Shown: positions 2,639 through 18,376 of the stretch, one piece after another
Layout: each line of letters starts with the position of its first letter
How positions within the stretch are numbered: position 1 is the stretch's first letter
NCBI GenBank assembly: GCA_964448705.1
Contig: CAYUZS010000002.1
Span: 49,577 to 113,576 of the forward strand
Direction: 5' to 3'
Length of the DNA: 64,000 nt
Source of the DNA: an uncultured Gammaproteobacteria bacterium
GTDB taxonomy: Bacteria > Patescibacteriota > Microgenomatia > UBA12405
Notes under the pieces: model-generated
What the model was told of the DNA's origin: nothing
Databases searched by the model: none
What the model saw: the letters and a program-made list of their open reading frames with translations, nothing else
Program-made: the position numbers and the translations under genes

Positions 2639-2806
2639 ATGAATCTAGAAGAAAATAAAATCATCTGTCCTGATTGTCAGGCGGAAATAATTAAACCTGA
2701 AACAATGGCAGTAGGCGACATTCTGGAATGCGCTGAGTGCGGTACTGAAGTGGAAATATTGTCTTTGGAACCTATTAAATACAAAGAGTTGGTTGAAGAA
2801 AAATAA
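2639..2806 (+). CDS. LysW/ArgW-like zinc-ribbon small protein (55 aa); possible amino-group carrier protein homolog
   Basis: MNLEENKIICPDCQAEIIKPETMAVGDILECAECGTEVEILSLEPIKYKELVEEK. It has the CPxC...(17 aa)...CxxCG(T/A)E(V/L)E(I/V) spacing and the hydrophobic pattern of LysW (compare Thermus CPECGAEL...CEDCGAELEVVGLDPLRLE). The ORF exactly fills the only 207-bp gap in the operon, with TATAAT at 2600-2605 and GGA 8 nt before the ATG. Its stop lies 1 nt from the convergent NlpC/P60 stop. The GTG start at 2594 given in the ORF track overlaps the PLP gene start and is unlikely. Confidence 0.45.
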   Translation: MNLEENKIICPDCQAEIIKPETMAVGDILECAECGTEVEILSLEPIKYKELVEEK

Positions 2807-2807
2807 A

Positions 2808-3356
2808 TTATTTCTGTAAATTAAGACGATAAAATCCCTGATGTGGAAATTCGGGATTGTCAATTTCAAATTTTCCCAAAACTACTCCCCTCTTTTTTTG
2901 ATTGCTTTCCAGGTATTCAACCAGATTACCGGTTTTTTTAATGACAAACAAAACATGCCGGCCGTTATTTTGACGAACCAGATCACCGGTAGTTAAAGAG
3001 TCAGAATCAACCGGCGATGATAGAGGGTATGAGGTGAGCATGTCGGCAGAAGTTTTTCGGGGATTGAGACTGGTTTTAAAATAAAAATTTAGGAGGTGAC
3101 AAACGAGTCCGGAGCAATCGATACCGAGATGATGTTTCTTTTGGAAATTGTAAATTTGTGAAGAGGAAAAATTAATTAACTTAACATTTTCGTTGTTGGC
3201 AAATTCGATTGTCTTTAAGGCAATTTCTTTGGCAGAACCTTTTCCAACTAAAGCATTTTCCCCATTATTTTTATACTTTCCCTTATTAATGAAATAGGGA
3301 ATACCAAGATAGGTGTTGATTTCTTGAAGAAGAGAATTTAATTTAGGCCTAACCAT
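2808..3356 (-). CDS. NlpC/P60-family cysteine peptidase/amidase, no signal peptide (cytoplasmic)
   Basis: Catalytic Cys in HHLGIDCSGLVCHLL and downstream His in NGRHVLFVIK, the typical NlpC/P60 Cys-His arrangement. The most plausible start is ATG at 3354-3356 (MVRPKLNSLL), overlapping the mraY 3' end by 19 nt. The N-terminus is not hydrophobic. Confidence 0.55.
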   Translation of the reverse strand: MVRPKLNSLLQEINTYLGIPYFINKGKYKNNGENALVGKGSAKEIALKTIEFANNENVKLINFSSSQIYNFQKKHHLGIDCSGLVCHLLNFYFKTSLNPRKTSADMLTSYPLSSPVDSDSLTTGDLVRQNNGRHVLFVIKKTGNLVEYLESNQKKRGVVLGKFEIDNPEFPHQGFYRLNLQK

Positions 3357-4372
3357 AGAGCAACAACTGCTAATATAATCGCCGCCAGCCAAGCCCGAAA
3401 GACGATTTTTGGTTCTTCCCAACCGATTTTTTGAAAAGTCAGATGAAGCGGTGCTGCCGGCAAAATTTTTCTTTTAAAATAGATTTTACTGAGTATTTGG
3501 ACTGCACTACTCATACCTTCAACGATAAACGGCAGTCCGACGATAAATAAAGGGACTAATTTACCTAATAAAATAGCTATTACGGCGATAGTGGCCCCAA
3601 AAGAAAGTGAGCCGACGTCACCAAGCCAGATACGGGCCGGATAAATATTAAAGTAAAGGAAAGCAATTAAAGCCCCCAACCATAAAGCAAGAAATAGAGA
3701 AATGGGAGTGTCTAAAGAATGGTTGGACAAAAACCAAAAAGCGAATAGAGCGATCATTAATAAACCACAGGAAAGTCCATCCAAACCATCGGTAATATTG
3801 AAAAAGTTAGCAAAGCCGACGATGATGGCTGTATACAAAGGTACAGAAAACCAACCCAAATTAACCGGCCCCAAGAAGGGAATGTAGACAAAATTAATTC
3901 CTAATTGAAAGACAGCATAAATGGAAATAAACAAAGCCAAAACAATCTGAAGAATAAGTTTGTGAACCATGCGAAGACCGAAAAACCCGGTTTTTGAAAA
4001 ACCAAAAAACTTTAAAATATCGTCGTATAGTCCCAGTAAAGCAAATCCGATAAAAGTGAAAAAGATGACGATAATTTCCTGATCGATTCGGTAGTTGCTG
4101 GAGATAAAAATGTTGGAAAAATGAAGCAAGGGAAAGAGGGATAAAAACAGAACAGTTACTGTAACAATGATCAAAAGACCGCCGCCGACCGGGGTGCCTG
4201 ATTTTTGACTATGAAAACGATCAAAAATTGGGGTGCGTTTGTTTTGAAAATCGAGGGTTTTTTGATTTTGACGCTGAAATTTTAGTTTATAGAGAAGATT
4301 GATAAAAGGAACAACAAGAATGCTGTTGGTGAGAAAGGAGAATAATAGTAAACCTAGATATAAATGGATCAC
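3338..4372 (-). CDS. mraY: Phospho-N-acetylmuramoyl-pentapeptide transferase MraY
   Basis: Polytopic membrane protein with KSGTPVGGG and NITDGLDGLSCG (DGLDGL) signatures of MraY/WecA-family polyprenyl-phosphate sugar-phosphate transferases. Sits in a dcw context. Confidence 0.9.
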   Translation of the reverse strand: MIHLYLGLLLFSFLTNSILVVPFINLLYKLKFQRQNQKTLDFQNKRTPIFDRFHSQKSGTPVGGGLLIIVTVTVLFLSLFPLLHFSNIFISSNYRIDQEIIVIFFTFIGFALLGLYDDILKFFGFSKTGFFGLRMVHKLILQIVLALFISIYAVFQLGINFVYIPFLGPVNLGWFSVPLYTAIIVGFANFFNITDGLDGLSCGLLMIALFAFWFLSNHSLDTPISLFLALWLGALIAFLYFNIYPARIWLGDVGSLSFGATIAVIAILLGKLVPLFIVGLPFIVEGMSSAVQILSKIYFKRKILPAAPLHLTFQKIGWEEPKIVFRAWLAAIILAVVALWLGLN

Positions 4373-4378
4373 TTTAGA

Positions 4379-5659
4379 TTAGATTATAAACTGTTTTAAA
4401 TTATTAAGTCCATCGAGACCTCCGGAACTAAAATGAATCAAGAGATCTCCCGGCTTTAGATTAGCGGAAAGATAGGTGAAGATATCGTCTTCAATCGGTA
4501 AATATTTCATTTTTTCACCGAGAACTTTTTGCCAATTAGCAGCTGTTACCCGATCATTTTTACCTGTATTGGCGGAAAAATGAATTTTTGAAAGGATAAA
4601 TTCATGACACATATTCTTGATTTGAGAAAAATCGTTAAGACTTTTTTGATTTTGAAGAAATTTGGCATGAGGCTCGAAATAGACAAAAATCCGACGTTTT
4701 GGATAAGCTTGTTGAAGTGCGGTGAGGGCTGAATAGACCCGGGAACCGGACTGAGCAAAATCGTCATAGATTAAAATATTGTTTTTGGAAGAAATTTTTT
4801 CCAGACGTCGTTTTAATCCGGGAAAAGTAGCGATATATTTTAAAATAATAGTACTTTTTAGGCCTAATTGATGACAAAAAGTATAAGCAGCGGCAATATT
4901 TTGCTGATTATATTGACCGATAAGTTTGGATTTGAAAACTTTGTCTATTTGATAATCAAAGGTCGGGGCCTTGCTTTCAGAAATAATCTTTTTTATTTCA
5001 CTGTCCTGTCCGTTATAAACAATAAATCCGTTTTCGGGTACATTTTTAATTAATTGCCGAAAGGCTTCAAAATTTTTTTCGGAGGTGGAATAAGATTCTT
5101 TATGTTCCCATTGAGCACTGGTGAGGATTAAATATTTGACAGGATAATAGAGAAATTTTGCTTTGGTATCCAGCCCGTTGATGGATTCATCGGCTTCAAC
5201 TACAGACCAGTTTGAAGTGGTGGAATTGATGGAAGGAGAATGATTAACAAGCTGGCCGCCAAAAAAATAATTTGGATGGTAGCCGGATTTATCCATAATC
5301 CAGGAAACAAGGGCGGTGATAGTGCTTTTGCCGTATGATCCGGCGACTAAAATAGAGTTTCCCCTAATTAAACTTTTAGCGATGAATTCAGTGGCGGTGG
5401 TGTAGGGAATATTAAGTTTTTTTATTTGTTCCCATTCTTCGACACATTTAGAAAAAGACAAAAAAGATGAACCAACAATGACGGCATCAATATGGGTGTT
5501 AATAGGAGTTTTATTCAACGGAATATCGGCGATAAGTTGACTGATGGGAGGATAGATTTTATCTTGGTCTGAACCGGTGACCTCGTGACCCTGCTGTTTT
5601 AAAATCATGGCAATTTGAGCTGTCATGACTCCGGCGATACCAAGAATATGAATATGCAT
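4379..5659 (-). CDS. Mur ligase family protein, Mpl/MurC-like (UDP-N-acetylmuramate:peptide or L-Ala ligase)
   Basis: N-terminus MHIHILGIAGVMTAQIAMILKQQGHEVTGSD closely resembles the Mpl/MurC Rossmann N-domain (E. coli Mpl MRIHILGICGTFMGGLAMLARQLGHEVTGSD as recalled). P-loop VAGSYGKSTIT. 426 aa. Confidence 0.7.
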   Translation of the reverse strand: MHIHILGIAGVMTAQIAMILKQQGHEVTGSDQDKIYPPISQLIADIPLNKTPINTHIDAVIVGSSFLSFSKCVEEWEQIKKLNIPYTTATEFIAKSLIRGNSILVAGSYGKSTITALVSWIMDKSGYHPNYFFGGQLVNHSPSINSTTSNWSVVEADESINGLDTKAKFLYYPVKYLILTSAQWEHKESYSTSEKNFEAFRQLIKNVPENGFIVYNGQDSEIKKIISESKAPTFDYQIDKVFKSKLIGQYNQQNIAAAYTFCHQLGLKSTIILKYIATFPGLKRRLEKISSKNNILIYDDFAQSGSRVYSALTALQQAYPKRRIFVYFEPHAKFLQNQKSLNDFSQIKNMCHEFILSKIHFSANTGKNDRVTAANWQKVLGEKMKYLPIEDDIFTYLSANLKPGDLLIHFSSGGLDGLNNLKQFII

Positions 5660-5664
5660 ATTTA

Positions 5665-6261
5665 TCAGTGATTAATATAGGGAACCCAAGAATTATTATA
5701 ATAGTATTCAAAACCAGGAAAACTGCGTTTGTAAAATCCTAATTTAGTCTCCGGATTAAATCTGCCTAAATAAGTGTATTTTAGCTGTTGTTCGTGGGAA
5801 TCGATGACAACCTGTAATGGACAGCGAATAGGGAGATCCTGATGAGAATATTTAGGATCGTAAAATAGGTAGGCGACATGGGAAATTGTCGGGGAAAAAT
5901 AACAAACGGCATAGGCGGCGACAACATCATGGTCGTAAAAAATATAAAGTCGATTGAAGATATGGTCGGTGAAAACTTTTTTTATGGAACTGGTGGGAAA
6001 ATCCCAGTTTAATTCCTTTACCCAATCATGAATTTGTTTTTGGAGCTTTGGGGTGTAAACAAAATCGGAAAGATTAACTGTTTTGTAAGTGATGTTTTCA
6101 GTTTTTTTTAAAATACGACGATTTTCGGAATTTAAGACAAAATTTTCCAAATTAGAACGACAGCTGCTTTCCTGATAAAAAATATTCTTTTCGTTGCGTT
6201 GAGGCAAAAGACCAAGATCGTAATTTTCTTCGATAGTAAGTTCGTTTTTAATGTTAAACAT
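5665..6261 (-). CDS. Hypothetical protein with Bpt/ATE-C-like (aminoacyl-tRNA--protein transferase family, GNAT fold) motifs
   Basis: HVAYLFYDPKY and KYTYLGRFNPE resemble the two conserved blocks of bacterial Bpt / eukaryotic ATE1 C-domain (recalled as ..SAVYTFYDP.. and ..YLYLGYWI..). 198 aa. 8-nt overlap with upstream murE-like gene. Low-confidence family call. Confidence 0.35.
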   Translation of the reverse strand: MFNIKNELTIEENYDLGLLPQRNEKNIFYQESSCRSNLENFVLNSENRRILKKTENITYKTVNLSDFVYTPKLQKQIHDWVKELNWDFPTSSIKKVFTDHIFNRLYIFYDHDVVAAYAVCYFSPTISHVAYLFYDPKYSHQDLPIRCPLQVVIDSHEQQLKYTYLGRFNPETKLGFYKRSFPGFEYYYNNSWVPYINH

Positions 6262-7522
6262 GCTGTTTTCTTAATCTAAAAGCGGATCTAAAAGCTTCGG
6301 ATTCGGACCAGGGATATTCAGTTTTACCATGAAGAATGGTAGTTTCGTGACCTTTACCGCAGGCGATTATAGTATCGCCCGGAGAGGCAAGTTTAACAGC
6401 TAAATTAAAAGCATCCTGACGATTGGGAATATCGTAATAAACGAAAGATTTATTTTGGAGACGATCCGGATCTATACCTTCAATTATCTGTGAATTAATA
6501 TCTTCAACTTTTTCATTACGGGTATCATCGGCGGTAATAATAGCAATGTCAGCTATTTTTGACACCTCGTAACCCATAATCGGGCGTTTGCTTTGGTCGC
6601 GGCCGCCGGTAGCGCCGAAAATAACAATCAACTTACCTGAAGTAATCTGACGAAGTGAAGAAAGGGTGTTTTTTAAGGCATTTGGAGTGTGGGCAAAATC
6701 GACGATAGTCCGAAAACGAAAACGATTGGAGACCTCTTCCCGGCGACCTTTAATTTCCGGAAAATGACGAATAGTGTTAATTAAAATTTGGGGATCAAAT
6801 TTTAACCAATTTAAAATTCCGTAGGCAGTCAAAATATTATAAATTTGATAACGATAGTTACTGTCGGTTTTGAAAGTTAATCCATTGACCGAAAAAGAAA
6901 GAAGGTCTGATTTATCGGAAATATTTTTAGCCTGATAATCGGATTTTTTTTCGATACTATAGGTGGTAAAAGGAACTTTAAGAGCAGGACTGATTTGAGA
7001 AAAAGTAGAATCATCTTTATTTAGAACAGCATAGCGGCACTTTTTAAAAATGAGACTTTTAGTGGAAACATAGTCGTCCATATCTAAAAAATCATCAAGG
7101 TGTTCATGAGAGGTATTGGTGATAGCGGCGACTTTAAAATTACAGCCATAAAATCGAAATTGGTCCAAGGCATGAGCAGTAACTTCGATAACGACGTGAG
7201 TAACTCCCTGATCTACCATCTGACGCAGTAAAAACTGAACTTTTGAGGAATCGGGAGAAGTGGTGTGGAGACCGATAGTTGATTCCTGGGTACCGATTTT
7301 AGAGCCGACAGTACTGATGAGTCCTGCCTTAATACCGGCGTTTAGTAAACATTGGTGAATAAGAACTGAGGTGGTGGTTTTACCATCAGTTCCGGTGATA
7401 CCAATGATAATCAGTTTCCGGGAAGGAAAGCGATAATAAAAGTTATAATACAAACTTTTGGGAAAATGCCAAAGAATATTTTTTATTTTCTGTTTAACTC
7501 TTTTTAATTTACGCTTAAACAT
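6254..7522 (-). CDS. murE: Mur ligase, MurE-like (UDP-MurNAc-L-Ala-D-Glu:diamino-acid ligase family) with a truncated N-terminal domain
   Basis: P-loop IIGITGTDGKTTT and C-terminal ITADDTRNEKVEDI (MurE DNPR(S/N)E-like block). Only ~37 aa precede the P-loop, versus ~100 in canonical MurE. Position after ftsI is as in dcw clusters. Confidence 0.65.
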   Translation of the reverse strand: MFKRKLKRVKQKIKNILWHFPKSLYYNFYYRFPSRKLIIIGITGTDGKTTTSVLIHQCLLNAGIKAGLISTVGSKIGTQESTIGLHTTSPDSSKVQFLLRQMVDQGVTHVVIEVTAHALDQFRFYGCNFKVAAITNTSHEHLDDFLDMDDYVSTKSLIFKKCRYAVLNKDDSTFSQISPALKVPFTTYSIEKKSDYQAKNISDKSDLLSFSVNGLTFKTDSNYRYQIYNILTAYGILNWLKFDPQILINTIRHFPEIKGRREEVSNRFRFRTIVDFAHTPNALKNTLSSLRQITSGKLIVIFGATGGRDQSKRPIMGYEVSKIADIAIITADDTRNEKVEDINSQIIEGIDPDRLQNKSFVYYDIPNRQDAFNLAVKLASPGDTIIACGKGHETTILHGKTEYPWSESEAFRSAFRLRKQHV

Positions 7523-7535
7523 AGGTTCATTTGAA

Positions 7536-9179
7536 TTATAACAGAGGAGTGATTTTAGAGGCTAATTCAAACCATATCGGAGCGGCGGTGCTTGAACCCC
7601 AAGGTGAACTTTTGGGATTGTTGATAGTGACAATCATAGTAAATTTGGGATTTTGACAAGGACTAAAACCGACATAAGAAGCATTGGTAAAAGATTCGGA
7701 ATAGCCGCCGGTGACAGCAACCTGAGCGGTACCGCTTTTGGCACAAACTTCAAGATCTTTTGGTCTAAATTGGTTAACGACACCGTTTTCAACGGCGTAT
7801 TTAAGAATTTCTTTAATGGTGTCAGTTGTAGACTTCTTGAATACTTCCGAAGGTTGGGGTAAATTATTGTTTATGATTTGGCTGCGGTCTTCAAAGTATT
7901 CAACTAAATGCGGCTGGGACATTAAGCCATCATTGGCCAAAGTATTGAAAGCCTGAAGCATTTGAATTTGAGTGACAGCAAAACCCTGGCCAAAAGAAGC
8001 GGTAGCCAAATCAATTTCCGGCCAAACGGTTTTTTCCAACGGTTTAACTTCTCCCTGAAGATCGATTCCGGTTTTTCGATTTAGACCAAGCGATTGGAAA
8101 TATTGTTGAAAAGTATTTAAACCAAGAGTTTCGATAATATAGCTCATGCCGATGTTGTCGGAATTTTTGATGATATCCTGAAGAGATGAATCGGGATGAT
8201 ACGAATTGTCCCAGTTTCCGATGGAATATTGGCCAATTTGATGGGGTTGATTACATTTAGTACAAACATAATCGGTAGAGATAGTCCGACTATTAAGAGC
8301 CATAGAGACAACCAGTGGTTTAAAAATTGAACCAGGCTCAAAAAGATCGGCAATTATCGGGTTTTTATACATAGCACTGGGAGTGGCGGAAGATGTGGCG
8401 ACAAAGCTGGCCATGGCAATTATGCCTCCGGTTTGGGGATTCATGATGGTAATCGAGCCGGAGTCGGCGTCGTATTTTTTTAGGCCTTCGGATAGAGAAT
8501 TTTCAGCAAGATACTGGATCTGACGATTCAAAGAAATATGTAAATTTCTCCCATCCTGAGGTTCAATATACCACCCCGGTTTATTCAAAACGGTTTGTCC
8601 GGTGGCGTCAATCCCCTGCCAGGAAAAACCATCACGACCGGAAAGTTGTTTTTGATAATAGCCTTCGATACCGCCAAGAGTTTTTGAGCCAAGGATAAGA
8701 GAGCCTAAATTTTTTTCCGGATAATAACGGGAATTAATTGAAGAAAAAGTTATCCCGGGATCTTTTAAAGAGTTTTTTTCTTCATAAGAAAAATTATCTT
8801 TTAAGGTTAACCATTTCTGATTAGGATTTAGAAGAAATTTATTCAATTGTTCCAAGTCTTCAGTAGAAATTTGAGGATGGACATGTTGAATTAAATTAAC
8901 GATTTCTTCGGGTTTTGTTTTAAGATCCGGCTTGTATAGCGAAAGCTGATAAAAAGTTTGATTAATGGATAAAGGAAAACCTGAAGCATCGTAAATTTTT
9001 CCAAACTGAGGCAAAACAACATTTGGCTTATAACTTTGATTGATAATTTTTTGGCTGAATTCCGGATTTTTGATTATCTGCCAGTAGAACAACCTACCGA
9101 TGACGATAAAATAACAAAAAATTAAGGTGAAGGTGACGATTTTTAAACGTTGAGAAAACATTTTAGTTAAGATTAACAA
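7536..9179 (-). CDS. ftsI: Class B penicillin-binding protein / peptidoglycan D,D-transpeptidase FtsI
   Basis: N-terminal TM, then SxxK (PGSIFKP), SxN-like and KSGTA motifs of PBP transpeptidase. Position between ftsL-like and murE. Confidence 0.85.
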   Translation of the reverse strand: MLILTKMFSQRLKIVTFTLIFCYFIVIGRLFYWQIIKNPEFSQKIINQSYKPNVVLPQFGKIYDASGFPLSINQTFYQLSLYKPDLKTKPEEIVNLIQHVHPQISTEDLEQLNKFLLNPNQKWLTLKDNFSYEEKNSLKDPGITFSSINSRYYPEKNLGSLILGSKTLGGIEGYYQKQLSGRDGFSWQGIDATGQTVLNKPGWYIEPQDGRNLHISLNRQIQYLAENSLSEGLKKYDADSGSITIMNPQTGGIIAMASFVATSSATPSAMYKNPIIADLFEPGSIFKPLVVSMALNSRTISTDYVCTKCNQPHQIGQYSIGNWDNSYHPDSSLQDIIKNSDNIGMSYIIETLGLNTFQQYFQSLGLNRKTGIDLQGEVKPLEKTVWPEIDLATASFGQGFAVTQIQMLQAFNTLANDGLMSQPHLVEYFEDRSQIINNNLPQPSEVFKKSTTDTIKEILKYAVENGVVNQFRPKDLEVCAKSGTAQVAVTGGYSESFTNASYVGFSPCQNPKFTMIVTINNPKSSPWGSSTAAPIWFELASKITPLL

Positions 9180-9417: not shown

Positions 9418-10286
9418 TAATCTATTCTATATGATCTGAGGACTGATGATCGAGATAAAGGATTATTTTTTATTTCAGAAAAAGACGGCAGAATGGCTTT
9501 GGTATTTGAGGCGGGAAAATGCTGACGAATAAATTGTTTAACCAGACGGTCTTCACCGGAATGAAAGGAAATAACAGCTACAACACAACCGGGAGAAAAT
9601 TTTAAAGTGGCCTGAAGAGCATTTTTTAGATTAGCAAATTCGTCGTTAACCGCGATTCTGAGGGCCATAAAAACTTTGGTAGCCGGATCTATTTTACTAT
9701 GGATGTGTTTTTCCTGGTAGTATTTACGGATAATGTCAGCTAATCTTTTTGCCGATTTTATCGGTTTATATTGTCTTTCTGAAATAATCCTGATGACAAG
9801 CGGTTTACTGAATTTTTCCTGGGCTAATTTGGAAAAAATATCATATAACTGCTGAAAGTCGTAAGTGTTGATAATTTCTTCAGCAGTAACAGTTTGAGTT
9901 TCTGGATCAAGCCTCATATCCAGTGAATCCGGATCGTTAAAAGAAAAACCACGACCGACACTTTTTTGCTGTCCGGAACTTAGTCCAAGATCAAAAAGAA
10001 TACCGTCAATTTTTGCCGGTATTTGATGACCAATAAGATTTTCCAATTGATTAAAATTAAAATGAAGAGGAATAAACTTTTGGGAAAGACCTAAATCGGA
10101 AATTCTTTGTTGAGCGATCGCCAAATTTACAGGATCCTGATCCAGTCCATAGACAATGCCGCCATGATTGATTATTTCCAGGGAATGACCACCATTTCCG
10201 GCTGTAGCATCGACATAAATACCACCGGGAACGACGTTAAGAACCTTAATTACTTCGTTTACCAGTACCGGTTGATGAAACTCCAT
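9417..10286 (-). CDS. rsmH: 16S rRNA (cytosine1402-N4)-methyltransferase RsmH/MraW
   Basis: MEFHQPVLVNEVIKVL...GIYVDATAGNGGHS is the characteristic RsmH N-terminus and SAM-binding motif. Confidence 0.9.
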   Translation of the reverse strand: MEFHQPVLVNEVIKVLNVVPGGIYVDATAGNGGHSLEIINHGGIVYGLDQDPVNLAIAQQRISDLGLSQKFIPLHFNFNQLENLIGHQIPAKIDGILFDLGLSSGQQKSVGRGFSFNDPDSLDMRLDPETQTVTAEEIINTYDFQQLYDIFSKLAQEKFSKPLVIRIISERQYKPIKSAKRLADIIRKYYQEKHIHSKIDPATKVFMALRIAVNDEFANLKNALQATLKFSPGCVVAVISFHSGEDRLVKQFIRQHFPASNTKAILPSFSEIKNNPLSRSSVLRSYRID

Positions 10287-10915
10287 TACTGATTTTGATA
10301 ATTACCTACCGGCGAACTCTGAGTACTGCCATAGACTGAATAACCGCCGCGATAGTTTTTAAGAAGAAGATAATAATTGCTGCCGGAAAGTTTTGATTTA
10401 AGAGGAACAGAAAAAGAACTATCCGTTAAAGCCAAAGAACCGGCTTTGTTGAGATCAGCAGTTGATTTGAGGGTAAACAAAGTTTCGTAAGTTGACATTT
10501 GGCCGTTTTTATCGATAAAGTTAAGTGTCATCGTTCCCCCGGTTACACCTTTATCATAGCTATATTTACAGCCATTAGTACAGCTTTCCGTGCCTAAAAG
10601 CAGTTTTCTTTCGATGGTTTTGGTAATTTCTTTTAGGGTATCACCTACTCCTTTTTCAATTTCGGCGCCATTATCACTGGCGTTGTATAGAATTTCATAT
10701 TCAATTGAAGAAATTGAATCGGGAATATCGACAATTTTTAGGGTTAAATAGTGGCCGTCAGCACTGGGAGTGAGACTGATTAAAGGTCGTTGATCAAGAG
10801 GCATTTCGACAACTCTTAATGCTGGAGTCGGAGTGACGGTGGTAGCGGATTTTTTGGCACCGCAACCAGCTAATAATAAACCAGTGGCAATTAAGGTTAG
10901 TATTTTTTTCTTCAT
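10286..10915 (-). CDS. Putative lipoprotein of unknown function
   Basis: MKKKILTLIATGLLLAGCGAKK gives a signal peptide with an LAGC lipobox. It occupies the slot where mraZ usually sits upstream of rsmH. Confidence 0.5.
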   Translation of the reverse strand: MKKKILTLIATGLLLAGCGAKKSATTVTPTPALRVVEMPLDQRPLISLTPSADGHYLTLKIVDIPDSISSIEYEILYNASDNGAEIEKGVGDTLKEITKTIERKLLLGTESCTNGCKYSYDKGVTGGTMTLNFIDKNGQMSTYETLFTLKSTADLNKAGSLALTDSSFSVPLKSKLSGSNYYLLLKNYRGGYSVYGSTQSSPVGNYQNQ

Positions 10916-10916
10916 G

Positions 10917-12236
10917 TTAAGAGTTTAGTTGTTGAGCAAGCCAGTTGTCAACTTCAGAAGCGGGAATACGCACCTGAGTCATAGTGTCCCGATCTCGAAT
11001 TGAAACAGTGTTGTCTTCCAGAGTTTGATAATCGACAACTAAACACCAGGGAGTTCCGATTTCGTCCTGTCGACGATATTTTTTACCGATATTACCGCTG
11101 TCATCCCAATCGAGGGAATATTTTTGAGAAAGCGACTGATAGAGCTCGTCAGCTTTGGTAACCAATTCCGGTTTGTTGGCAGCCAGTGGGAAAATAGCCA
11201 TTTTATAGGCAGAAACTTGAGGTTTAATTTGCAGCCAGGTTCGAATTTCACCATTCTCCAAAGTGTCTTCATGATAAGCATCGAGCAACATGAAGAAAAA
11301 GCTGCGATCAACTCCACCGGAGGTTTCGGTGATATGAGGTAAATATTTTTCATGAGTAACAGGATCGAGATAGGATAAATCCTGATTACTGAATTGACTG
11401 TGTTGAGTTAAATCATAATCTGAACGCCAGTGAATTCCTTCCATTTCTGACCAACCCCAGGGAGCGTTATATTCAATATCAAAAGCTTTTTTGGCGTAGA
11501 AAACGAGTTCGTCTTTTTCGTGCTGTCGAAAACGAAGGTTATCGGATTGGTTAAACATTTTTTTATACCAATTCATACGCTCTGCTTTCCAATATTCATA
11601 CCACTTGTCCATTTCTGAGGGATGAACGAAGTATTGAATATCCCATTGTTCAAATTCCCGGGTGCGGTACAAAAAGTTTTTGGGAGTTATTTCGTTTCGA
11701 AAAGCTTTTCCGATCTGAGCGATACCGAAAGGGATTTTGACACGGGAGGAATCGACTATATTTTTGAAATCAAGATAAATAGTTTGACAGGCTTCACCCC
11801 GAAGATAGGCATGCATTTTTTCGCCTTCAATGACACCAATGTCGGTTTCAAAAAGAATATTATATTTACGGCCCTCGGTGAATTCTCCATCGCATTCCGG
11901 ACATTTAGCAGCGTTGTCGATTAAATCCGGACGAAAGCGTTTATGGCACGATTTGCATTCGACCATAATATCGGCAAAGTTTTTAACATGCCCCGAAGCT
12001 TCCCAAACTCTGGGATGGGTAATTATTGAACCATCAATTAGAACTATGTCCCGACGGCGGGTAACGTTGTCGCGGATCCAAAGATTTTTCCAATTGTATT
12101 TCATCAACGCTCCGACCGGACCGTAATCATAGAAACCCTGAACACCTCCGTATATTTCACTGTTCTGAAAAATAATTCCCCGACGTTTGCAGAGAGAAAC
12201 AATTTTGGAAACGATATCGTTTTGAGTATTTGCCAT
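10917..12236 (-). CDS. glyS: Glycine--tRNA ligase (class II, homodimeric GlyRS type)
   Basis: IFQNSEIYGG...HPRVWEASGHV...FRNEITP...ETSGGVDR class-II aaRS / GlyRS motifs. 439 aa. Confidence 0.9.
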   Translation of the reverse strand: MANTQNDIVSKIVSLCKRRGIIFQNSEIYGGVQGFYDYGPVGALMKYNWKNLWIRDNVTRRRDIVLIDGSIITHPRVWEASGHVKNFADIMVECKSCHKRFRPDLIDNAAKCPECDGEFTEGRKYNILFETDIGVIEGEKMHAYLRGEACQTIYLDFKNIVDSSRVKIPFGIAQIGKAFRNEITPKNFLYRTREFEQWDIQYFVHPSEMDKWYEYWKAERMNWYKKMFNQSDNLRFRQHEKDELVFYAKKAFDIEYNAPWGWSEMEGIHWRSDYDLTQHSQFSNQDLSYLDPVTHEKYLPHITETSGGVDRSFFFMLLDAYHEDTLENGEIRTWLQIKPQVSAYKMAIFPLAANKPELVTKADELYQSLSQKYSLDWDDSGNIGKKYRRQDEIGTPWCLVVDYQTLEDNTVSIRDRDTMTQVRIPASEVDNWLAQQLNS

Positions 12237-12239
12237 AGT

Positions 12240-12404
12240 GGTCTCTAAAGTATTAATTAAATAATAACATTAGAGGTCCCTTCAGAGTATTTAGGGAGGT
12301 TCCACCTCAATTGCCAAACTATGATTATCCAATCAGTTTGACCACTTATTCAACCTGCTCCGGGGAGCCAATCCCCCATCACTGCAGAATAGCAAATTAT
12401 AGCA
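12240..12404 (-). promoter_or_regulatory. Candidate promoter (extended -10 TGCTATAAT at 12396-12404) plus T-box-like leader upstream of glyS
   Basis: On the minus strand the leader contains AATTGAGGTGGAACC (12298-12313), versus the T-box consensus AATTAGGGTGGTACC. Its UGGA bulge would pair with the ACCA end and U73 discriminator of tRNA-Gly. A GC-rich hairpin GGGGGAUUGGCUCCCC with GGC (Gly codon) in the loop lies upstream. This is the only ~185-nt non-coding stretch in this part of the window. No convincing terminator/antiterminator alternative was resolved by eye. Confidence 0.35.
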
Positions 12405-12421
12405 TACGAAAATAGTTCAAG

Positions 12422-12745
12422 TTATTTTTCACCACTTTTGAAGTAATAGCCAATAACAAAACCAAGAGAAGAGCCAACAATAGAACCAATTATTGAGAGT
12501 ATATCTTTTAAATCAATTAGTAGTTCGTTATTTTTAATGGTATTGTAGATTAAATAATTGTATGTTGGTATGAGAATAACAACAAGACCTATCAGTATGA
12601 AGAAACCCCATACGAAAACATTAGCAATTCTTGCCCTTTGATGATCAATATGTTCTTTTGGATTATATCTAGCTGGTTTGAGGTTGCTTTCAATAGTACT
12701 TTGTAATTTTGCAAAAGACTCTTGAAGATTTGTTTCTCTATTCAT
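12422..12745 (-). CDS. Small membrane protein (2 predicted TM), unknown function
   Basis: 107 aa, AT-rich relative to its neighbours. 4-nt overlap with the upstream 80-aa ORF. Hydrophobic segments FVWGFFILIGLVVILIP and IIGSIVGSSLGFVIGYYF. Confidence 0.3.
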   Translation of the reverse strand: MNRETNLQESFAKLQSTIESNLKPARYNPKEHIDHQRARIANVFVWGFFILIGLVVILIPTYNYLIYNTIKNNELLIDLKDILSIIGSIVGSSLGFVIGYYFKSGEK

Positions 12746-12984
12746 TGTTCGAGAAATTCTTTAGATAGTTCAACATAGCTATTTACTAGAGTTTCTGTCT
12801 TCTTTAGGATAATTTCGATATTTTGTTGCATTTTTTCGATCTCATCTTTTAGTTTTTGGTCTTGTATAGATATAGCTGATTTTTTTAAGAGAGCATATTG
12901 AATAGCAAGTTCTTGGAGTGCTTCAACATTTTCTTTAAGAGCAGAGTTAACTTGATTACTTTTATCGACTATCTGTTGGTTCAT
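12742..12984 (-). CDS. Small coiled-coil protein, unknown function
   Basis: 80 aa with heptad-like charged/hydrophobic periodicity (..LKENVEALQELAIQYALLKK..IEKMQQNIEIILKK..). Translationally coupled to the next ORF. Confidence 0.3.
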   Translation of the reverse strand: MNQQIVDKSNQVNSALKENVEALQELAIQYALLKKSAISIQDQKLKDEIEKMQQNIEIILKKTETLVNSYVELSKEFLEQ

Positions 12985-13011
12985 CTATCGATATTATAAC
13001 GGATTAATAAA

Positions 13012-13572
13012 TTATCGGAAGAGTTTGTCGCTTTGGAGCGGTTTTTCAATGATAGATTCCAAATGCCGTTTAAGAATTTTTTGAGCGGTGATATAGTCCT
13101 GCTGTTGATAGGCTTGGGTAACAGTTTCCGGTAAACCAAAACCAAGAAAATTAATAAACTCCATCTCGTACTTGATGAATTGGGATAATTGATTGAGGTT
13201 AATCGAAGTAATTAATTTTTCTGAAATTTGGTAAATGCCGGGAATATTTTGATTTTCAGCAATAAAATAATTGATTATTTCAAGAACGTAAAATAATAGG
13301 TTAAGCTGAGTTAAGGATTTTTGGTGATGAAGAAATTGAGAAACAGAAATTGATTCTGATAACCATAAAAAATCATTTTTTTGATAAAGATGAGCTTTAA
13401 TGATATTCCCCAACTGAAGTGTGCCCAGACGACTGCTTTTGATATTTTTAGCACCTTTGGCCAGAACAACAATTTTACCCAGTTCCGGAGTCAGCAGAGT
13501 AACAAAAATATCTGTTTCCCGATAAACTTTGGTTTTAACAACAATTCCGAGTGTATTTTGAAATTTTGGCAT
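13012..13572 (-). CDS. recO: DNA repair protein RecO (short form)
   Basis: N-terminal OB-fold pattern GIVVKTKVYRETDIFVTLLTPELGKIVVLAKGAKN typical of RecO. 186 aa. 1-nt overlap with upstream DUF4012 gene. Confidence 0.5.
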   Translation of the reverse strand: MPKFQNTLGIVVKTKVYRETDIFVTLLTPELGKIVVLAKGAKNIKSSRLGTLQLGNIIKAHLYQKNDFLWLSESISVSQFLHHQKSLTQLNLLFYVLEIINYFIAENQNIPGIYQISEKLITSINLNQLSQFIKYEMEFINFLGFGLPETVTQAYQQQDYITAQKILKRHLESIIEKPLQSDKLFR

Positions 13573-15530
13573 TAAAGAGAAAGTTTGACGGTTTTATCAC
13601 CAGTCCAAGTGAAACTTTCTTCAAGTTTACCATTTACCCAAAGATCATAGGGAATATCTTTAGTACCCGGTTGTTTTTGGAGCAACAAAGTATAGTTGGC
13701 ATTAGCGGGGACACTGGAAACATATTGTACAGATGTTTTGGCGCTGGATTGGGCATAAAGTGGATATTTATTTCCGTAAAATCCTTCAAAAACCTGCTTA
13801 CCAAGTTCTTCATAAACAACGGGTTCGACTTCGGAGCCAGTCATTTTTACCAGTTTTGAACCGGTGGGAACATAGAATCTAAACCAATCGCGATATTTGG
13901 GAGCATTAAGACATAGTCCGCCTGTTTCCAAATTACAGTTGCTGGCCTTAAAAGGATTAGTGTAGGTGACGGTGACTTTATGCTCTACCTGTCCGTTATT
14001 GGCGATGATTTCGTGTTTTATTTTTTGAGTGAGAAAAATATTAGTTTTAGCACTGGCGAAATTGGCATCATTAAGATGAAGATAATCAATAGAATTGTCG
14101 GTCTGGGTGATGCTGCCGGCAATACCTGCAGTGACGGCGGCTTTTTGGATTTCCGGATCAGTAAAGTAAAAAACAACGTGTTTTTTCATGATATCGTTAA
14201 ATCCGGTTTCGACCAGAGATCCGATTTTATTCTTTTCGGCACCAAGGACATTAGAAAGAATAGTGTGAATTAACGGACCAAGGAATCCTTTACGATTATT
14301 ATCGATATAGTTACGGGGCTGACCAGCCTCCCACTCTATCTGGTAAATAATTTGAGGACAACCATTACATCTTTTATCGGGATCAGCAGAAACATTTCCT
14401 AAAGTGCCGGCACCAACCCGACCTATTACTTTGAGAAGATCGACAAGAACCTGGGTGTCGATACCAATGACAGCATCAAATTTAGTTTTAGTTTTAGTAA
14501 TTTTGTAATAGGTATCCATAAAAGGTTCGATACTGGTGGGGAAATCAGGAGACAAATTCATGTCTCTAAGATTGTAGTAAGGAACATTAAGATGGTAGGC
14601 TTTTAACGGCCGGGGAGCCGGGACAGTGCTGCTGTACATAGCGTCGAGATCATAGATATTGCCGGAAGCACCGGGAGTAATCTTACCTTTATTAATAGTC
14701 ATAGTGCCATAAGCTGTCCAGAAACCACCGGTGGGACGAAGCTCAGCATCGTTTTGAAAAATCAAGAAATAGGTTCTGGGGCCATCTTTACCGAGAAACC
14801 ATGAGAGTTTAGAGAGAATCGGCTGACCGTTTTTAGTGAGTTGATGAATATCAGCGACGGTTTGTTTGGCTAAATTGATATTTGATTTAATAATCATGCC
14901 GTTAAATTCATCCGGATAACGTGATGAATCAATTTGATCAAATTCTGTTTCGATTTCGGCAAGTTTGGCTTCAATAGTACTAAGATGAGGAATAATTCCT
15001 TCCACAGATTCGGTTAAAAAGTCCAATCTATCCTGAGTAGTGGTGGCACTGTCGGTAGCAGAACCGGCTAATCCCAAGAAATCCTGATAAGGCTCGACGG
15101 CAGTAATGACAATTTGACCGGTTTCCAGACCTAGTTTTCCAATATTAACTAAATGATTACCATCAGAATAATAATCTTTTAGATAAGGTAATACCTTCAT
15201 GTAGGAAAACTTTTGATAGGACGACTGAAGTTGAGAAAGTTTTGACTGAAGATCGCTAACCTGGACTTTGGCATCTTTAAGATCTTTGTTGGCGACGGCG
15301 CTTTTAAGTTTATTGACACCTTCCTGAAGTGAAGTGGCTTGAGAGTAGATTTTTTGACCGGGAAGATAAACCAAGAAGAAACCGCTGATACCAAAAATGC
15401 CGATAATAATTAACAAAACCAAAAAGATTCTGGAAATAACTTTCAGAAACTTAGGTGTTTTTTTCTTACCACCGGTAACAGTAATTTTTTTTTCGGAGGC
15501 AGGTTTAGAAATAGACGGAACATCAATCAT
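13572..15530 (-). CDS. DUF4012-family membrane-anchored protein (cell-envelope associated, function unknown)
   Basis: N-terminal TM, long coiled-coil region, then FQNDAELRPTGGFWTAYG (DUF4012 N-x-A-E-x-R-x-x-GG motif). Confidence 0.5.
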   Translation of the reverse strand: MIDVPSISKPASEKKITVTGGKKKTPKFLKVISRIFLVLLIIIGIFGISGFFLVYLPGQKIYSQATSLQEGVNKLKSAVANKDLKDAKVQVSDLQSKLSQLQSSYQKFSYMKVLPYLKDYYSDGNHLVNIGKLGLETGQIVITAVEPYQDFLGLAGSATDSATTTQDRLDFLTESVEGIIPHLSTIEAKLAEIETEFDQIDSSRYPDEFNGMIIKSNINLAKQTVADIHQLTKNGQPILSKLSWFLGKDGPRTYFLIFQNDAELRPTGGFWTAYGTMTINKGKITPGASGNIYDLDAMYSSTVPAPRPLKAYHLNVPYYNLRDMNLSPDFPTSIEPFMDTYYKITKTKTKFDAVIGIDTQVLVDLLKVIGRVGAGTLGNVSADPDKRCNGCPQIIYQIEWEAGQPRNYIDNNRKGFLGPLIHTILSNVLGAEKNKIGSLVETGFNDIMKKHVVFYFTDPEIQKAAVTAGIAGSITQTDNSIDYLHLNDANFASAKTNIFLTQKIKHEIIANNGQVEHKVTVTYTNPFKASNCNLETGGLCLNAPKYRDWFRFYVPTGSKLVKMTGSEVEPVVYEELGKQVFEGFYGNKYPLYAQSSAKTSVQYVSSVPANANYTLLLQKQPGTKDIPYDLWVNGKLEESFTWTGDKTVKLSL

Positions 15531-15559
15531 CCTTTAAGTTTAAAGTATTTTTTTAAAAT

Positions 15560-16231
15560 TTACCAGATTGATAACATGGCTAAAGGAGTTTTTAGAAGAA
15601 TAATAATTTCCTGACGGAAAGATCGGTTCTTAATATAGTTGGCATCAAGCTCGGCTCTTTTTTCAAAGCTTAATTCATTTCTTCCGGATGTCTGCCAGAG
15701 ACCGGTGATGCCCGGTTTGGCAGTCCGAATGACATCAATATATTTTTTAGTCTGAGGATATTTGGCCTCGTATTCTTTCAATTCTTCATCACGATAAGCT
15801 CTTGGACCAACTAAACTCATCTCTCCTTTCAGAACATTTATAAATTGAGGCATTTCATCAACAGATGTGCTGCGGAGTATTTTACCGATGGCAGTGATTC
15901 TGGGATCTTCTTTCATGGGAAGTTTCCAATCAGATTTTTTGTATTTTTCCCAAAGTTCGGGATATTGTTCGCGTAATCTTTTATCGTTGTCACCGATATA
16001 CATACTACGAAATTTATACATATAAAATTCTTTTTTCTGACCGACTCTTTTTTGTTTAAAAATAACCGGTCCGGGAGAAGTGAGTTTAATAAGAATGGCA
16101 GAGATGATCAAAAAAGGAGAAAAAATGAGGAGTAAAAAGAGTGAACCAAAAATATCAATCAACCTTTTGGAGGTATCAAAAAGAAAAATTCTTTCTTTCA
16201 AAAATAATTTATCTGTTTTTTCATTGATCAT
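15560..16231 (-). CDS. Polyprenyl-phosphate hexose-1-phosphate transferase (bacterial sugar transferase, WbaP/PglC-type initiating enzyme)
   Basis: KRLIDIFGSLFLLLIFSPFLIISAILIKLTSPGPVIFKQKRVG...YKFRSM...DEMPQFINVLKGEMSLVGPR. Start moved to MINEK (16231) to avoid the 47-nt overlap with ManC. Confidence 0.8.
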   Translation of the reverse strand: MINEKTDKLFLKERIFLFDTSKRLIDIFGSLFLLLIFSPFLIISAILIKLTSPGPVIFKQKRVGQKKEFYMYKFRSMYIGDNDKRLREQYPELWEKYKKSDWKLPMKEDPRITAIGKILRSTSVDEMPQFINVLKGEMSLVGPRAYRDEELKEYEAKYPQTKKYIDVIRTAKPGITGLWQTSGRNELSFEKRAELDANYIKNRSFRQEIIILLKTPLAMLSIW

Positions 16232-17321
16232 TTTGGGATAGAAAATATTTTTTAAATTTAGAATCACTTACCATTTTGGCAACCAACTCACGAACTTTGT
16301 AACTGCCATTATAAGCAATATTGCAGACTAATAAACCATCAGGAGTGTCGATAATCGCTAAATTATTAACATCTACAAGTCCTACCAGTTTTCCTTTTGG
16401 GGCTAAAACAAGGCATTTTTTGGAATCAACTTCCAAAAATTCAGTATCCTGATTAAGAGGAATAACTTTGTCAGTTTTAATTGAAAGTTGACGATAGATA
16501 GATTTCCATTCGCCGACATCATTCCAGACAAAATCAGCGGCCAGCATAACAATATTTTTAGACTTTTCAGAGATGGCTATATCAAGGGGTAAACTTGGTG
16601 ATAATGAATAAATATGGGGAATGTCTTTGGGAGAGGATATTATTTTTTGATATAAGTCATAGTATTTTGGTGAACAGGATTTGAATTCCGAGAGAATAGT
16701 CTGAACATTAAAGGTGTAGATTCCCGAATTCCAATAACTTTTTCCGGAGCGAATTAATTTTTCAGCCGTGGCCAGCGGTGGTTTTTCGATGAAATTTTTG
16801 ACGGTATAAATCCCCTGTTGTTGATGACCGACTAAAATATAACCAAAAGAAACACTGGGTGAATTTGGGACAATTCCTAAGGTAACAACAATCGGTTTAC
16901 CGGCGGCAATAAGAGCGGATTTTTTTATCTGTTTAACGAAAACAGGTAAGTTGCCAATATAGTGATCGGAAGTAAAGGAGGAAATGACGGCCTGAGGATT
17001 TATCTGAGAAATAATAGAAGAGGCATAAAGAATGGCCATGGCGGTGTTCTTTTTATCGGGTTCGGAAATAAGATTATGTTCGGAAAGTAGACCTTTTAAA
17101 TGGCTTTTAATGAGGTGATTATATTTTTGGTGGCTGATGACAAAAATGTGGTCTCTGGGAACTATTTTTTGAGCTCTTAAAAAAGTTTCTCTAAGAAAAG
17201 AATCTTTGGAAAGAATGGATAAAAATTGTTTCGGATGACCGGACCTGGATAGTGGCCAGAGCCGTGGACCGCTGCCCCCGCAAAGAATTAAAATATAATG
17301 ATTATTTACTGTTCCCGACAT
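16221..17321 (-). CDS. manC: Mannose-1-phosphate guanylyltransferase-like sugar nucleotidyltransferase
   Basis: ILCGGSGPRLWPLSRSGHPKQFL nucleotidyltransferase signature. 366 aa. Confidence 0.7.
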   Translation of the reverse strand: MSGTVNNHYILILCGGSGPRLWPLSRSGHPKQFLSILSKDSFLRETFLRAQKIVPRDHIFVISHQKYNHLIKSHLKGLLSEHNLISEPDKKNTAMAILYASSIISQINPQAVISSFTSDHYIGNLPVFVKQIKKSALIAAGKPIVVTLGIVPNSPSVSFGYILVGHQQQGIYTVKNFIEKPPLATAEKLIRSGKSYWNSGIYTFNVQTILSEFKSCSPKYYDLYQKIISSPKDIPHIYSLSPSLPLDIAISEKSKNIVMLAADFVWNDVGEWKSIYRQLSIKTDKVIPLNQDTEFLEVDSKKCLVLAPKGKLVGLVDVNNLAIIDTPDGLLVCNIAYNGSYKVRELVAKMVSDSKFKKYFLSQNDQ

Positions 17322-18376
17322 AATTTATCGACTGCCTTTTTGAAGTTTAACATAAATTTAGTTTCGGAAAATTGAAGAGCATTTTGTCGACAAATTTTAG
17401 GATCAAAAACTATTTTTTCAAAATTACGTAATGCTTTTGTCAGATCAGAAACAAGAGGCCGATTAAAAAGTAAACCGGTCTGGCCATCGACTATAGTTTC
17501 AGTGTTACCTCCCTGCCCCAAACCAATTACCGGCCGACCGCATGCTTGGGCTTCAAGAGCGACAAGACCAAAATCTTCCAGTTGAGGACAAATGACAGCA
17601 TGGCAATTTTGGTACAGTGTCAGTAATTTTTTGTCCGATACCTTACCGGCGAAAGTAATATTTCTATTTTTAGAGGCTAATTTTTTTAGTTTTTTTTCTT
17701 CACGGCCGGTGCCGACAATTATCAAATTTTGGGGAAATTCTTTAAAGGCCTTGATGACCAAATCAATATTTTTATGAGCAACTAATCGGGTAACTATAAG
17801 ATAGTAATCCGAAGTCGGACGGTTGAGCGGTTTAAAATAATCAGTGTCGATACCGGGATAAATTACCAATGGTTTAATATCCAACTTTTCCGATAACCGC
17901 TGCTGAACTGTTTTTGAATTGCACAAGGAGATATCCGGACGGCGGGCATATTGATAATCAAGACGGCGGTAAATATTTAATAAGGGAGACAAAAAACGAT
18001 ATTTAGGAGGAGTGAAATATAAATAACGATTTAAATTGTGGTAATAACAAATAAATTTAGTGGAAGGCGGAGTGATGAGACAATGTCCGACAACAGAGGT
18101 GGTGGAAATGACAATATCATATTGAGAAAAATCAAATTGTTCCAAGGCCAGGTCGTAAATAGGAGTGTAGACCAGAGGATTGTTTTTAGAAAACGGAAGA
18201 CGATTGATAAAAGAAGTAATAACTGAAGTTTGACGGGGAAGCCATGGAGTTTTAGAGGGATTGTGGACTAAAGTATAGACCGGAGCATCGGGATAAATTT
18301 TTATTAAAGAAAGTAAAACTTTTTCGGCACCTCCCCATTGATTCAGCCAGTCATAAAATAAAGCAACTTTAGGCAT
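17306..18376 (-). CDS. Glycosyltransferase, GT-B fold (GT4 family)
   Basis: C-terminal EDFGLVALEAQACGRPVIGLGQGGNTETIVDGQTGLLF (E-x7-E GT4 motif). Confidence 0.8.
   Translation of the reverse strand: MPKVALFYDWLNQWGGAEKVLLSLIKIYPDAPVYTLVHNPSKTPWLPRQTSVITSFINRLPFSKNNPLVYTPIYDLALEQFDFSQYDIVISTTSVVGHCLITPPSTKFICYYHNLNRYLYFTPPKYRFLSPLLNIYRRLDYQYARRPDISLCNSKTVQQRLSEKLDIKPLVIYPGIDTDYFKPLNRPTSDYYLIVTRLVAHKNIDLVIKAFKEFPQNLIIVGTGREEKKLKKLASKNRNITFAGKVSDKKLLTLYQNCHAVICPQLEDFGLVALEAQACGRPVIGLGQGGNTETIVDGQTGLLFNRPLVSDLTKALRNFEKIVFDPKICRQNALQFSETKFMLNFKKAVDKLCREQ

Follow-up and report, generated by a model that had tools for sequence, protein, structure and literature searches.

A MurE ligase without domain 1

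The stretch of DNA analysed here, referred to throughout as the window, comprises 64,000 nucleotides (positions 49,577 to 113,576 of contig CAYUZS010000002.1, assembly GCA_964448705.1) and carries a division and cell wall (dcw) cluster in which the genes follow the order rsmH, ftsL-like, ftsI, murE, an ATE_C-like gene, a gene for a MurC-like ligase and mraY. The subject of this report is the murE gene at positions 6254..7522 (this and all further window features lie on the minus strand unless stated otherwise), whose 422 amino acid (aa) product has domains 2 and 3 of the ligase only and is assigned by its open reading frame (ORF), its Pfam domains, the TIGR01085 model and its best PDB matches, which are MurE proteins. 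Directly upstream, ftsI (7536..9179; Pfam Transpeptidase and PBP_dimer) encodes the penicillin-binding protein transpeptidase and marks the dcw position. Just 13 nucleotides (7523..7535 in the ORF list and the sequence) separate the ftsI stop codon from the murE ATG, leaving no room for a longer N-terminus, as an earlier note on this DNA had argued.

The Mur ligases MurC to MurF are textbook three-domain enzymes, and their N-terminal domain is regarded as the module for the uridine diphosphate (UDP)-linked substrate. In the window protein the Pfam scan recognised the Mur_ligase_M central domain (PF08245, 138 bits; residues 42-236, positions 6815..7399), the ATPase and N-acetylmuramic acid (MurNAc)-peptide-binding part of the enzyme, and the amino-acid-binding Mur_ligase_C domain (PF02875, 82.6 bits; residues 260-391, positions 6350..6745). 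The N-terminal domain PF01225 gave no match in the short MurE, while the same scan detected it in the adjacent MurC-like protein. The NCBIfam murE model TIGR01085 scores 323.4 bits against a cut-off of 257.3, a score that places the protein in the family, and the alignment pairs residues 27-414 with model positions 75-470. The equivalog model for diaminopimelate (DAP)-specific MurE, NF001126, scores 350 bits, just under its cut-off of 373. In a PDB sequence search the solved MurE chains align to the short MurE starting at their residue 93 (T. maritima), 99 (E. coli) or 138 (M. tuberculosis).

The predicted structure agrees with the profiles. In an AlphaFold2 (AF2) model based on 45 homologues (predicted local distance difference test score, pLDDT, 90; predicted template modelling score, pTM, 0.89) a single helix, residues 2-29, leads directly into the first strand of domain 2. 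A Foldseek search of the PDB returned MurE structures as the top matches, with domains 2 and 3 of canonical MurE superposing on the window protein at a template modelling (TM) score of 0.82-0.85 when normalised to the query and of about 0.70 when normalised to the target, the latter value corresponding to the whole MurE target except domain 1. Sequence identity is 26-32% to the solved structures (Foldseek) and 33-39% to canonical cluster representatives. Taken together, these results confirm that domain 1 (about 90 aa, with the uridine site) is absent from the window MurE and that one basic amphipathic helix stands in its place. The central claim of the earlier note, a MurE-like ligase missing the UDP-binding domain, is thereby borne out, and the profile and structural checks it had proposed place the protein above the MurE cut-off and beneath those for MurT and FolC, with no compact domain 1 in the AF2 model.

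The sequence motifs lie where that note had read them. The P-loop GITGTDGKTTT occupies residues 41-51 (7370..7402), and the MurE-like C-terminal block ADDTRNE occupies residues 331-337; within it, DDTR (residues 332-335, 6518..6529) is the counterpart of E. coli DNPR by sequence and column counts, with the arginine kept. The lysine at the carbamylated position, K155, is encoded at 7058-7060.

The helix itself has two parts. Residues 1-18 (MFKRKLKRVKQKIKNILW; 7469..7522) are the extension that takes the place of domain 1, delimited by the AF2 model and invariant alignment columns, and residues 19-29 (7436..7468) are a linker helix kept in common with canonical MurE, as seen when the consensus sequences of short and canonical forms are anchored on the P-loop. 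In that comparison the stretch from H19 onward matches the canonical linker helix, and H19 itself aligns with the serine of the canonical n-S-R motif. The close family shows no variation at Q11, K14, N15, H19 and P21; over 62 diverse short forms the conservation of H19 still reaches at least 90%, and a KN..H motif is a conserved mark of the short-MurE N-terminus. Across 76 short forms the extension ahead of the linker helix has a median length of 17 aa, a median net charge of +3 and a hydrophobic moment of 0.6. The basic helix probably either makes a minimal contact to the diphosphate or keeps the enzyme beside its partners or the membrane, in which case tight uridine recognition would be dispensable.

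Conservation and distribution of the short form

Every one of the best 120 database homologues is 407-442 aa long and has the same two Pfam domains without PF01225. Their identity to the window protein is 58-81%, apart from one entry that is 100% identical, and the named organisms among them belong to Shapirobacteria, Woesebacteria and the Microgenomates group. Short forms also make up 79 of 120 aligned representatives of 50%-identity clusters (33-60% identity to the window protein). The number of residues ahead of the P-loop lysine is 30-62 in short representatives versus 100-140 in canonical ones, and at 33 independent genome loci an in-frame stop codon lies 39-80 codons before that lysine. 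With a hidden Markov model (HMM) of domain 1, trained on 41 canonical MurEs, we searched all six frames of the window and of the flanks of the short-MurE loci (about 0.7 Mb, E ≤ 10) and obtained no match; the same model did detect canonical-MurE loci, e.g. L055, L024, L062 and L042 (labels of this form denote the individual loci compared).

A frameshift or mis-called start is ruled out by the 13-nucleotide gap to ftsI, the equal lengths of the homologues and the stop-bounded ORFs in 33 genomes, and a compact but complete domain 1 is ruled out by the single AF2 helix and the profile alignments. Within the roughly 0.7 Mb covered, the blank domain-1 HMM search over the window and 33 loci also gives no sign of a split gene or a stand-alone domain 1 nearby. 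The two outcomes that the earlier note had set against its own claim, a complete compact domain 1 and an upstream frameshift, are therefore both excluded by the AF2 model and profiles, the homologue lengths, the stop-bounded ORFs and the HMM result. Short length is the sole point in favour of an artefact or a decaying gene (mis-called start, frameshift or pseudogene); thousands of homologues of equal length, the stop-bounded ORFs, the invariant active site and the confident AF2 model speak against it, and we regard its probability as negligible. Because there is no PF01225 match, the model has a single helix ahead of domain 2 and the domain-1 HMM is blank, we class the protein as an orthologue of MurE in a two-domain variant, not as a member of the canonical three-domain form.

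By name, the carriers of short MurE are Shapiro-, Woese-, Levy-, Davies-, Gottesman- and Woykebacteria, CPR3 and metagenome-assembled genomes (MAGs) of the "Patescibacteria group". In a large section of the ultra-small bacteria of the Candidate Phyla Radiation (CPR; Microgenomates-type) the short form is the regular MurE, and it sits in a normal cell-wall cluster. Canonical MurE is retained in some Woesebacteria-labelled and other Patescibacteria genomes, and among Chloroflexota the MurEs with the shared TGTDGKTT P-loop are canonical too. In a neighbour-joining tree (100 bootstraps) short and canonical MurEs were not separated, the best split misplacing 28 of 117 sequences; mean identities are 0.42 among short forms, 0.40 among canonical forms and 0.40 between the two. 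Since the tree does not resolve the short forms as monophyletic, we do not claim a single loss event.

Several MAG records with a CPR-type dcw cluster and a short MurE are titled Gammaproteobacteria, Pseudomonadales, Bathyarchaeia or Limnocylindrales (L001, L004, L007, L010, L012, L013, L033 and others). Such titles are probably placeholder or mis-binned taxonomy.

Orthology, active site and acceptor

By its position the window gene is orthologous to canonical murE. The window and a Woesebacteria-labelled contig (L086) have in common the synteny DUF4012-RecO-class II aminoacyl-tRNA synthetase-rsmH-ftsL-ftsI, and in L086 a canonical 518-aa MurE fills the same slot, with murA between ftsI and murE. 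The 864-kb contig L085 reads mraZ-rsmH-ftsL-ftsI-murE (420 aa, M and C domains only)-murC-murB-murA-murF (415 aa, M and C domains only)-mraY-murD-ftsW, and in L059 a short MurE stands alongside MurC, MurF and MurD. In complete clusters with MurC, MurD and MurF together with MurA, MurB and MraY the short MurE is the sole MurE-type gene, and none of the loci examined carries both a short and a canonical MurE. Nor does the 64-kb window hold a second MurE-type ligase; its Mur ligases are the short MurE and the MurC-like gene. The only neighbour common to all short-MurE loci is ftsI.

Published structural work on M. tuberculosis MurE places the contacts to MurNAc-L-Ala-D-Glu in domain 2 (Thr195/196, Ser222 and Arg230) and the diphosphate loop (Gly83/Ser84) in domain 1 (PMC6736417). 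The DNPR motif, with Arg416, functions in binding of the diamino acid (PMC3829189, PMC6736417), and an arginine at the fourth position of the DNPR-type motif is typical of DAP-adding MurE (PMC6736417). When we compared residue conservation in 76 short and 41 canonical MurEs, the catalytic set (P-loop K48, the Mg-binding residues E113 and H141, and K155 at the carbamyl-lysine position) was invariant throughout. T88, T115 and R123, which correspond to M. tuberculosis T196, S222 and R230, are kept in at least 97% of the short forms, counting T/S and R/K exchanges. At the diamino-acid site, short and canonical forms show equal conservation of E393 and of the motif [DE]D[PT]R, which includes Arg335; the window motif reads DDTR, and most other short forms have EDPR. 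The retained arginine favours a DAP-like substrate in our sequence comparison but is not decisive, since the motif of the Thermotoga enzyme, read off the PDB alignment, is DDPR. That enzyme adds lysine, and the DNPR-type motif therefore does not fix amino-acid specificity.

The dcw position, the complete clusters and the conserved catalytic and MurNAc-peptide contacts make it most likely that the short MurE is still the ligase for position 3 of the stem peptide. Overall we think it probable, with some reserve, that the window protein is a functional two-domain MurE of a large Microgenomates-type CPR clade and that it continues to attach the diamino acid of position 3 to a MurNAc-linked dipeptide. 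ATP would activate the free carboxylate of that dipeptide to an acyl-phosphate in domain 2 (K48, E113, H141, K155), and a diamino acid bound in domain 3 (by DDTR, which includes Arg335, and by E393) would then attack the acyl-phosphate with its amino group. With domain 1 deleted and the retained linker helix lengthened by about 17 basic amphipathic residues carrying KN..H, the acceptor would be recognised chiefly through the domain-2 contacts T88, T115 and R123, and the basic helix may act as a minimal substitute for domain 1, in contacting the diphosphate, in docking, or both. That UDP-MurNAc intermediates are made follows from the UDP-binding domains kept by the MurC of the window and by the MurC and MurD of its relatives. 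The acceptor is accordingly taken to be UDP-MurNAc-dipeptide, and a lipid-linked or other non-UDP acceptor would, as far as these comparisons allow a judgement, be the minority reading.

The short MurE shares with the canonical enzyme its P-loop, Mg ligands, carbamyl-lysine position, MurNAc-dipeptide contacts, DNPR-type motif and dcw position. It differs in the lack of domain 1, and with it the uridine pocket and the diphosphate loop, in the basic helix of about 17 aa with KN..H, in having DDTR for DNPR, and in the substitutions S116A, H145F, N226Q and I372F seen in the window's sublineage. Among other known systems MurT (6GS2, 7Q8E) is likewise a peptidoglycan enzyme of the Mur-ligase fold without domain 1. 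Unlike the window protein, whose C-terminal domain is PF02875, MurT ends in a DUF1727 domain and works with a partner, GatD, and it amidates the D-isoglutamate of lipid II without adding an amino acid. With the MurT model NF052464 the window protein reaches 30 bits, where the cut-off is 800, and the PDB match to MurT is confined to residues 204-338 (E about 6e-4); a GatD-like gene was not seen among the annotated neighbours, where no GatD model was searched. FolC/FPGS, CapB and the M domain of cyanophycin synthetase are two-domain members of the Mur-ligase superfamily with the same acyl-phosphate chemistry, but they act on folate, poly-gamma-glutamate and cyanophycin and do not lie in dcw clusters. 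Scores against the other family models are far under their cut-offs (FolC, 32.8 versus 162.7; CphA, 114.6 versus 850; pseudomurein pMurE, 69 versus 600). The plastid protein PAP11 (8R6S, 8W9Z), the top Foldseek hit (E = 3.8e-35), is a MurE derivative of matching fold that has been re-purposed; it keeps an N-terminal region and serves the plastid RNA polymerase as a structural subunit, whereas the window protein retains all catalytic residues and a bacterial dcw context. The suggestion in the earlier note that the enzyme, lacking domain 1, may act on a non-nucleotide substrate finds no support in the murE slot, the complete Mur clusters, the conserved contacts or the sub-cut-off MurT, FolC and cyanophycin synthetase scores.

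Neighbouring genes, alternative readings and significance

MurF, whose domain 1 is of the type seen in MurE, has likewise lost it in many related CPR genomes. MurF proteins without domain 1, 394-425 aa long, are encoded in L017, L020, L041, L043, L046, L059, L063, L072, L083, L085 and L086; they begin with a short helix that carries the motif P-x-H-x2-RR-x2-AK-x-W, and short forms of 398-425 aa align to the MurF model starting at position 62-68. The best 120 matches to this family are all 378-424 aa long with M and C domains only. The independent loss in MurF shows that CPR can do without this type of domain, and the pairing of a short MurF with a canonical MurE in L086 makes the losses in MurE and MurF separate events. 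In other CPR MurFs domain 1 is replaced by an N-terminal region of 120-230 aa that has 2-5 hydrophobic, transmembrane-like segments and the motif LWQLKEYR[FI]DR (L007:16612-18327, L013:19356-20813, L034:11388-12986, L052:17999-19393, L058:19143-20594 and L053:16505-18040); the sequence of this type suggests membrane anchoring.

Mur fusions are also present in these lineages. L059 encodes a fusion of the uridyltransferase part of GlmU to MurC (11190-13181), and L087 encodes a MurE-NTP-transferase fusion (10001-12286) and a MurB-MurD fusion (13729-16269), with a FemAB-family gene and a DegT aminotransferase gene beside MurF. Long MurC-class ORFs of 648-826 aa occur in L010 (3422-5368), L034 (3360-5666) and L080 (12200-14680).

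Downstream of murE the window departs from the usual cluster. The ATE_C-like gene (5665..6261; 198 aa; PF04377, 27.9 bits) overlaps the murE stop codon by 8 nucleotides and is followed by the gene for the divergent MurC-like ligase (4379..5659; 426 aa; Pfam and TIGR01082), which keeps the UDP-binding N-terminal domain PF01225, and by mraY (3338..4372; PF00953, 105 bits), a member of the phospho-MurNAc-pentapeptide translocase family. The MurC-like protein reaches 202 bits with TIGR01082 (cut-off 335) and fits poorly in its C-terminal half, and it forms a separate subfamily in the window's sublineage. Between mraY and ftsW lies a block with genes for an NlpC/P60-like protein (2808-3422), a LysW-like zinc ribbon (2639-2806, plus strand), a fold-type-II pyridoxal phosphate (PLP) enzyme (1794-2600) and an ATP-grasp ligase (688-1797).

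We define the sublineage as the window and its eight closest loci (L001-L006, L081 and L082; MurE identity 53-64%), for which 12-64 kb per genome could be surveyed. Within that range none of the nine has MurB, MurD, MurI, Ddl or MurF. MurA was not found in the 64-kb window, and the closest relatives carry murA between murC and mraY. The ATE_C-like gene occurs at 13 loci; at 11 of these it sits between murE and the murC-like gene, and a further ORF intervenes beside it in L012 and L046 (MurB-like in L046). It follows murE directly in all of these loci except L046. The ATE_C-like protein has the arginyl-tRNA-protein transferase C-terminal fold, related to Fem and L/F transferases, and is a candidate tRNA-dependent aminoacyl transferase acting on a peptidoglycan precursor. 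The full set of LysW-like, PLP-enzyme and ATP-grasp genes is present at 10 of the 13 loci, the other three (L003, L004 and L012) ending at a contig edge, and MurD was not seen at any of the 13 in the DNA surveyed. This includes L083 and L084, which keep MurB, Ddl and MurF, and L046, which keeps MurB and MurF. The position of the block is exactly that of murD in L085 and is next to the murD/murI position in L086. The small LysW-like protein has a CxxC...CxxC pattern and the C-terminus ELVEEK, and scores 31.6 bits with the LysW model, under the cut-off of 53.2. The LysW-like/PLP-enzyme/ATP-grasp block may be a non-orthologous replacement of MurD and MurI or a module for diamino-acid synthesis. 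The sublineage MurEs in addition carry S116A, H145F (HLDYH to HLDDF), N226Q and I372F at positions that are at least 88% conserved in other short and canonical MurEs, and together with the gene block these substitutions hint at a remodelled stem-peptide pathway.

Upstream of the dcw genes the window has a polysaccharide-type block (13572-20449) with DUF4012, Bac_transf, a ManC-like nucleotidyltransferase, two family 4 glycosyltransferases (GT4) and one family 2 glycosyltransferase (GT2). Its proximal part (ManC-like, Bac_transf and DUF4012, plus RecO) is shared by L081 and L082, and L082 also has one GT4.

Several observations weigh against a two-domain MurE with an ordinary acceptor. The diphosphate loop (M. 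tuberculosis Gly83/Ser84) has been lost along with domain 1, and, to our knowledge, every characterised Mur-type ligase without domain 1 (MurT, FolC, CapB and the M domain of cyanophycin synthetase) uses a non-nucleotide acceptor. MurD, MurI, MurF, Ddl and MurB were not found in the 64-kb window or the eight related loci, the four sublineage substitutions leave room for an acceptor that differs from the textbook dipeptide, and murE copy number was read at the level of single loci.

One alternative places the reaction of the short MurE at the membrane, along with that of MurF in its short or membrane-anchored form. The substrate would be undecaprenyl-diphosphate-MurNAc-peptide, a lipid I/II-type precursor with an incomplete stem, and the N-terminal helix of MurE would be a peripheral membrane anchor. 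The absence of domain 1, the basic (median +3) and amphipathic extension and the transmembrane-like segments that take the place of domain 1 in other CPR MurFs all fit this idea, the retained domain-2 contacts would recognise the diphosphate-MurNAc-peptide part common to lipid- and UDP-linked precursors, and MurT, a relative without domain 1, acts on lipid II. MraY, however, normally requires the pentapeptide and works poorly with shorter stems, the gene order is the canonical cytoplasmic one, and the hydrophobicity and hydrophobic moment of the helix are not clearly membrane-seeking. Since a canonical MurE is found beside a short MurF in some relatives, the loss of domain 1 does not go hand in hand with a re-ordering of the whole pathway, and the score with the MurT model is far too low; we consider a membrane step unlikely. 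Alternatively, uridine could be recognised in trans by a multi-enzyme complex (with MurD, MurC, MurF or another protein) that hands over UDP-MurNAc-dipeptide and to which the conserved helix docks. Mur fusions are frequent in these lineages (GlmU N-terminal part-MurC in L059, MurE-NTP-transferase and MurB-MurD in L087, the long MurC-class ORFs in L010, L034 and L080), and the helix motif is conserved though too small for a nucleotide pocket, but no stand-alone domain-1-like ORF occurs in the window or the roughly 0.7 Mb of flanks and no neighbour except ftsI is common to all short-MurE loci. We judge such a complex quite unlikely.

The gene block of the window's sublineage raises a further possibility, namely that the ATE_C-like, LysW-like, PLP-enzyme and ATP-grasp genes have displaced MurD and MurI, and perhaps MurF and Ddl, and that the short MurE there ligates onto a non-standard stem with another second residue, or onto a carrier- or peptide-bound intermediate. 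The uniform lack of MurD at the 13 ATE_C-like loci, even where MurB, Ddl and MurF are retained, the location of the block between mraY and ftsW where murD lies elsewhere, and the sublineage substitutions at conserved MurE sites, with DDTR for EDPR, would all be accounted for. The absences nevertheless cover 12-64 kb per genome, the catalytic and MurNAc-contact residues are intact, and the short architecture goes back much further and is much more widespread than the block, which therefore does not account for the missing domain 1; we regard a changed acceptor as very unlikely. A more sweeping proposal would have Microgenomates-type MurE and MurF no longer use free UDP-precursors at all and work instead at the membrane, where MurE would be held by its helix and MurF by its transmembrane segments, either with lipid-linked MurNAc-peptides as substrates or as parts of a membrane-bound channelling complex, with the window sublineage further remodelled through displacement of MurD and MurI by the LysW-like/PLP-enzyme/ATP-grasp module and a tRNA-dependent ATE_C-like transferase. 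That the precursor pathway has been re-ordered in this way seems to us improbable. We retain the two-domain MurE acting at position 3 of the stem peptide as the favoured reading.

MurE itself is a known enzyme, and databases label the short forms as ordinary MurE by automated annotation. Our literature search found no paper that joins "Mur ligase" with "Patescibacteria" and nothing on domain loss in MurE of CPR or Microgenomates, and the two-domain MurE is apparently a minimal architecture undescribed in the literature. A whole bacterial radiation appears to make peptidoglycan with a MurE, and often a MurF, that has no UDP module; domain 1 would be dispensable in vivo, and a natural minimal MurE is defined, which makes recognition of the nucleotide (or lipid) precursor carrier by such an enzyme directly testable. 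The short MurE bears on inhibitor design, which is often aimed at the uridine pocket, and on the cell envelopes of CPR bacteria, which are experimentally almost unexplored.

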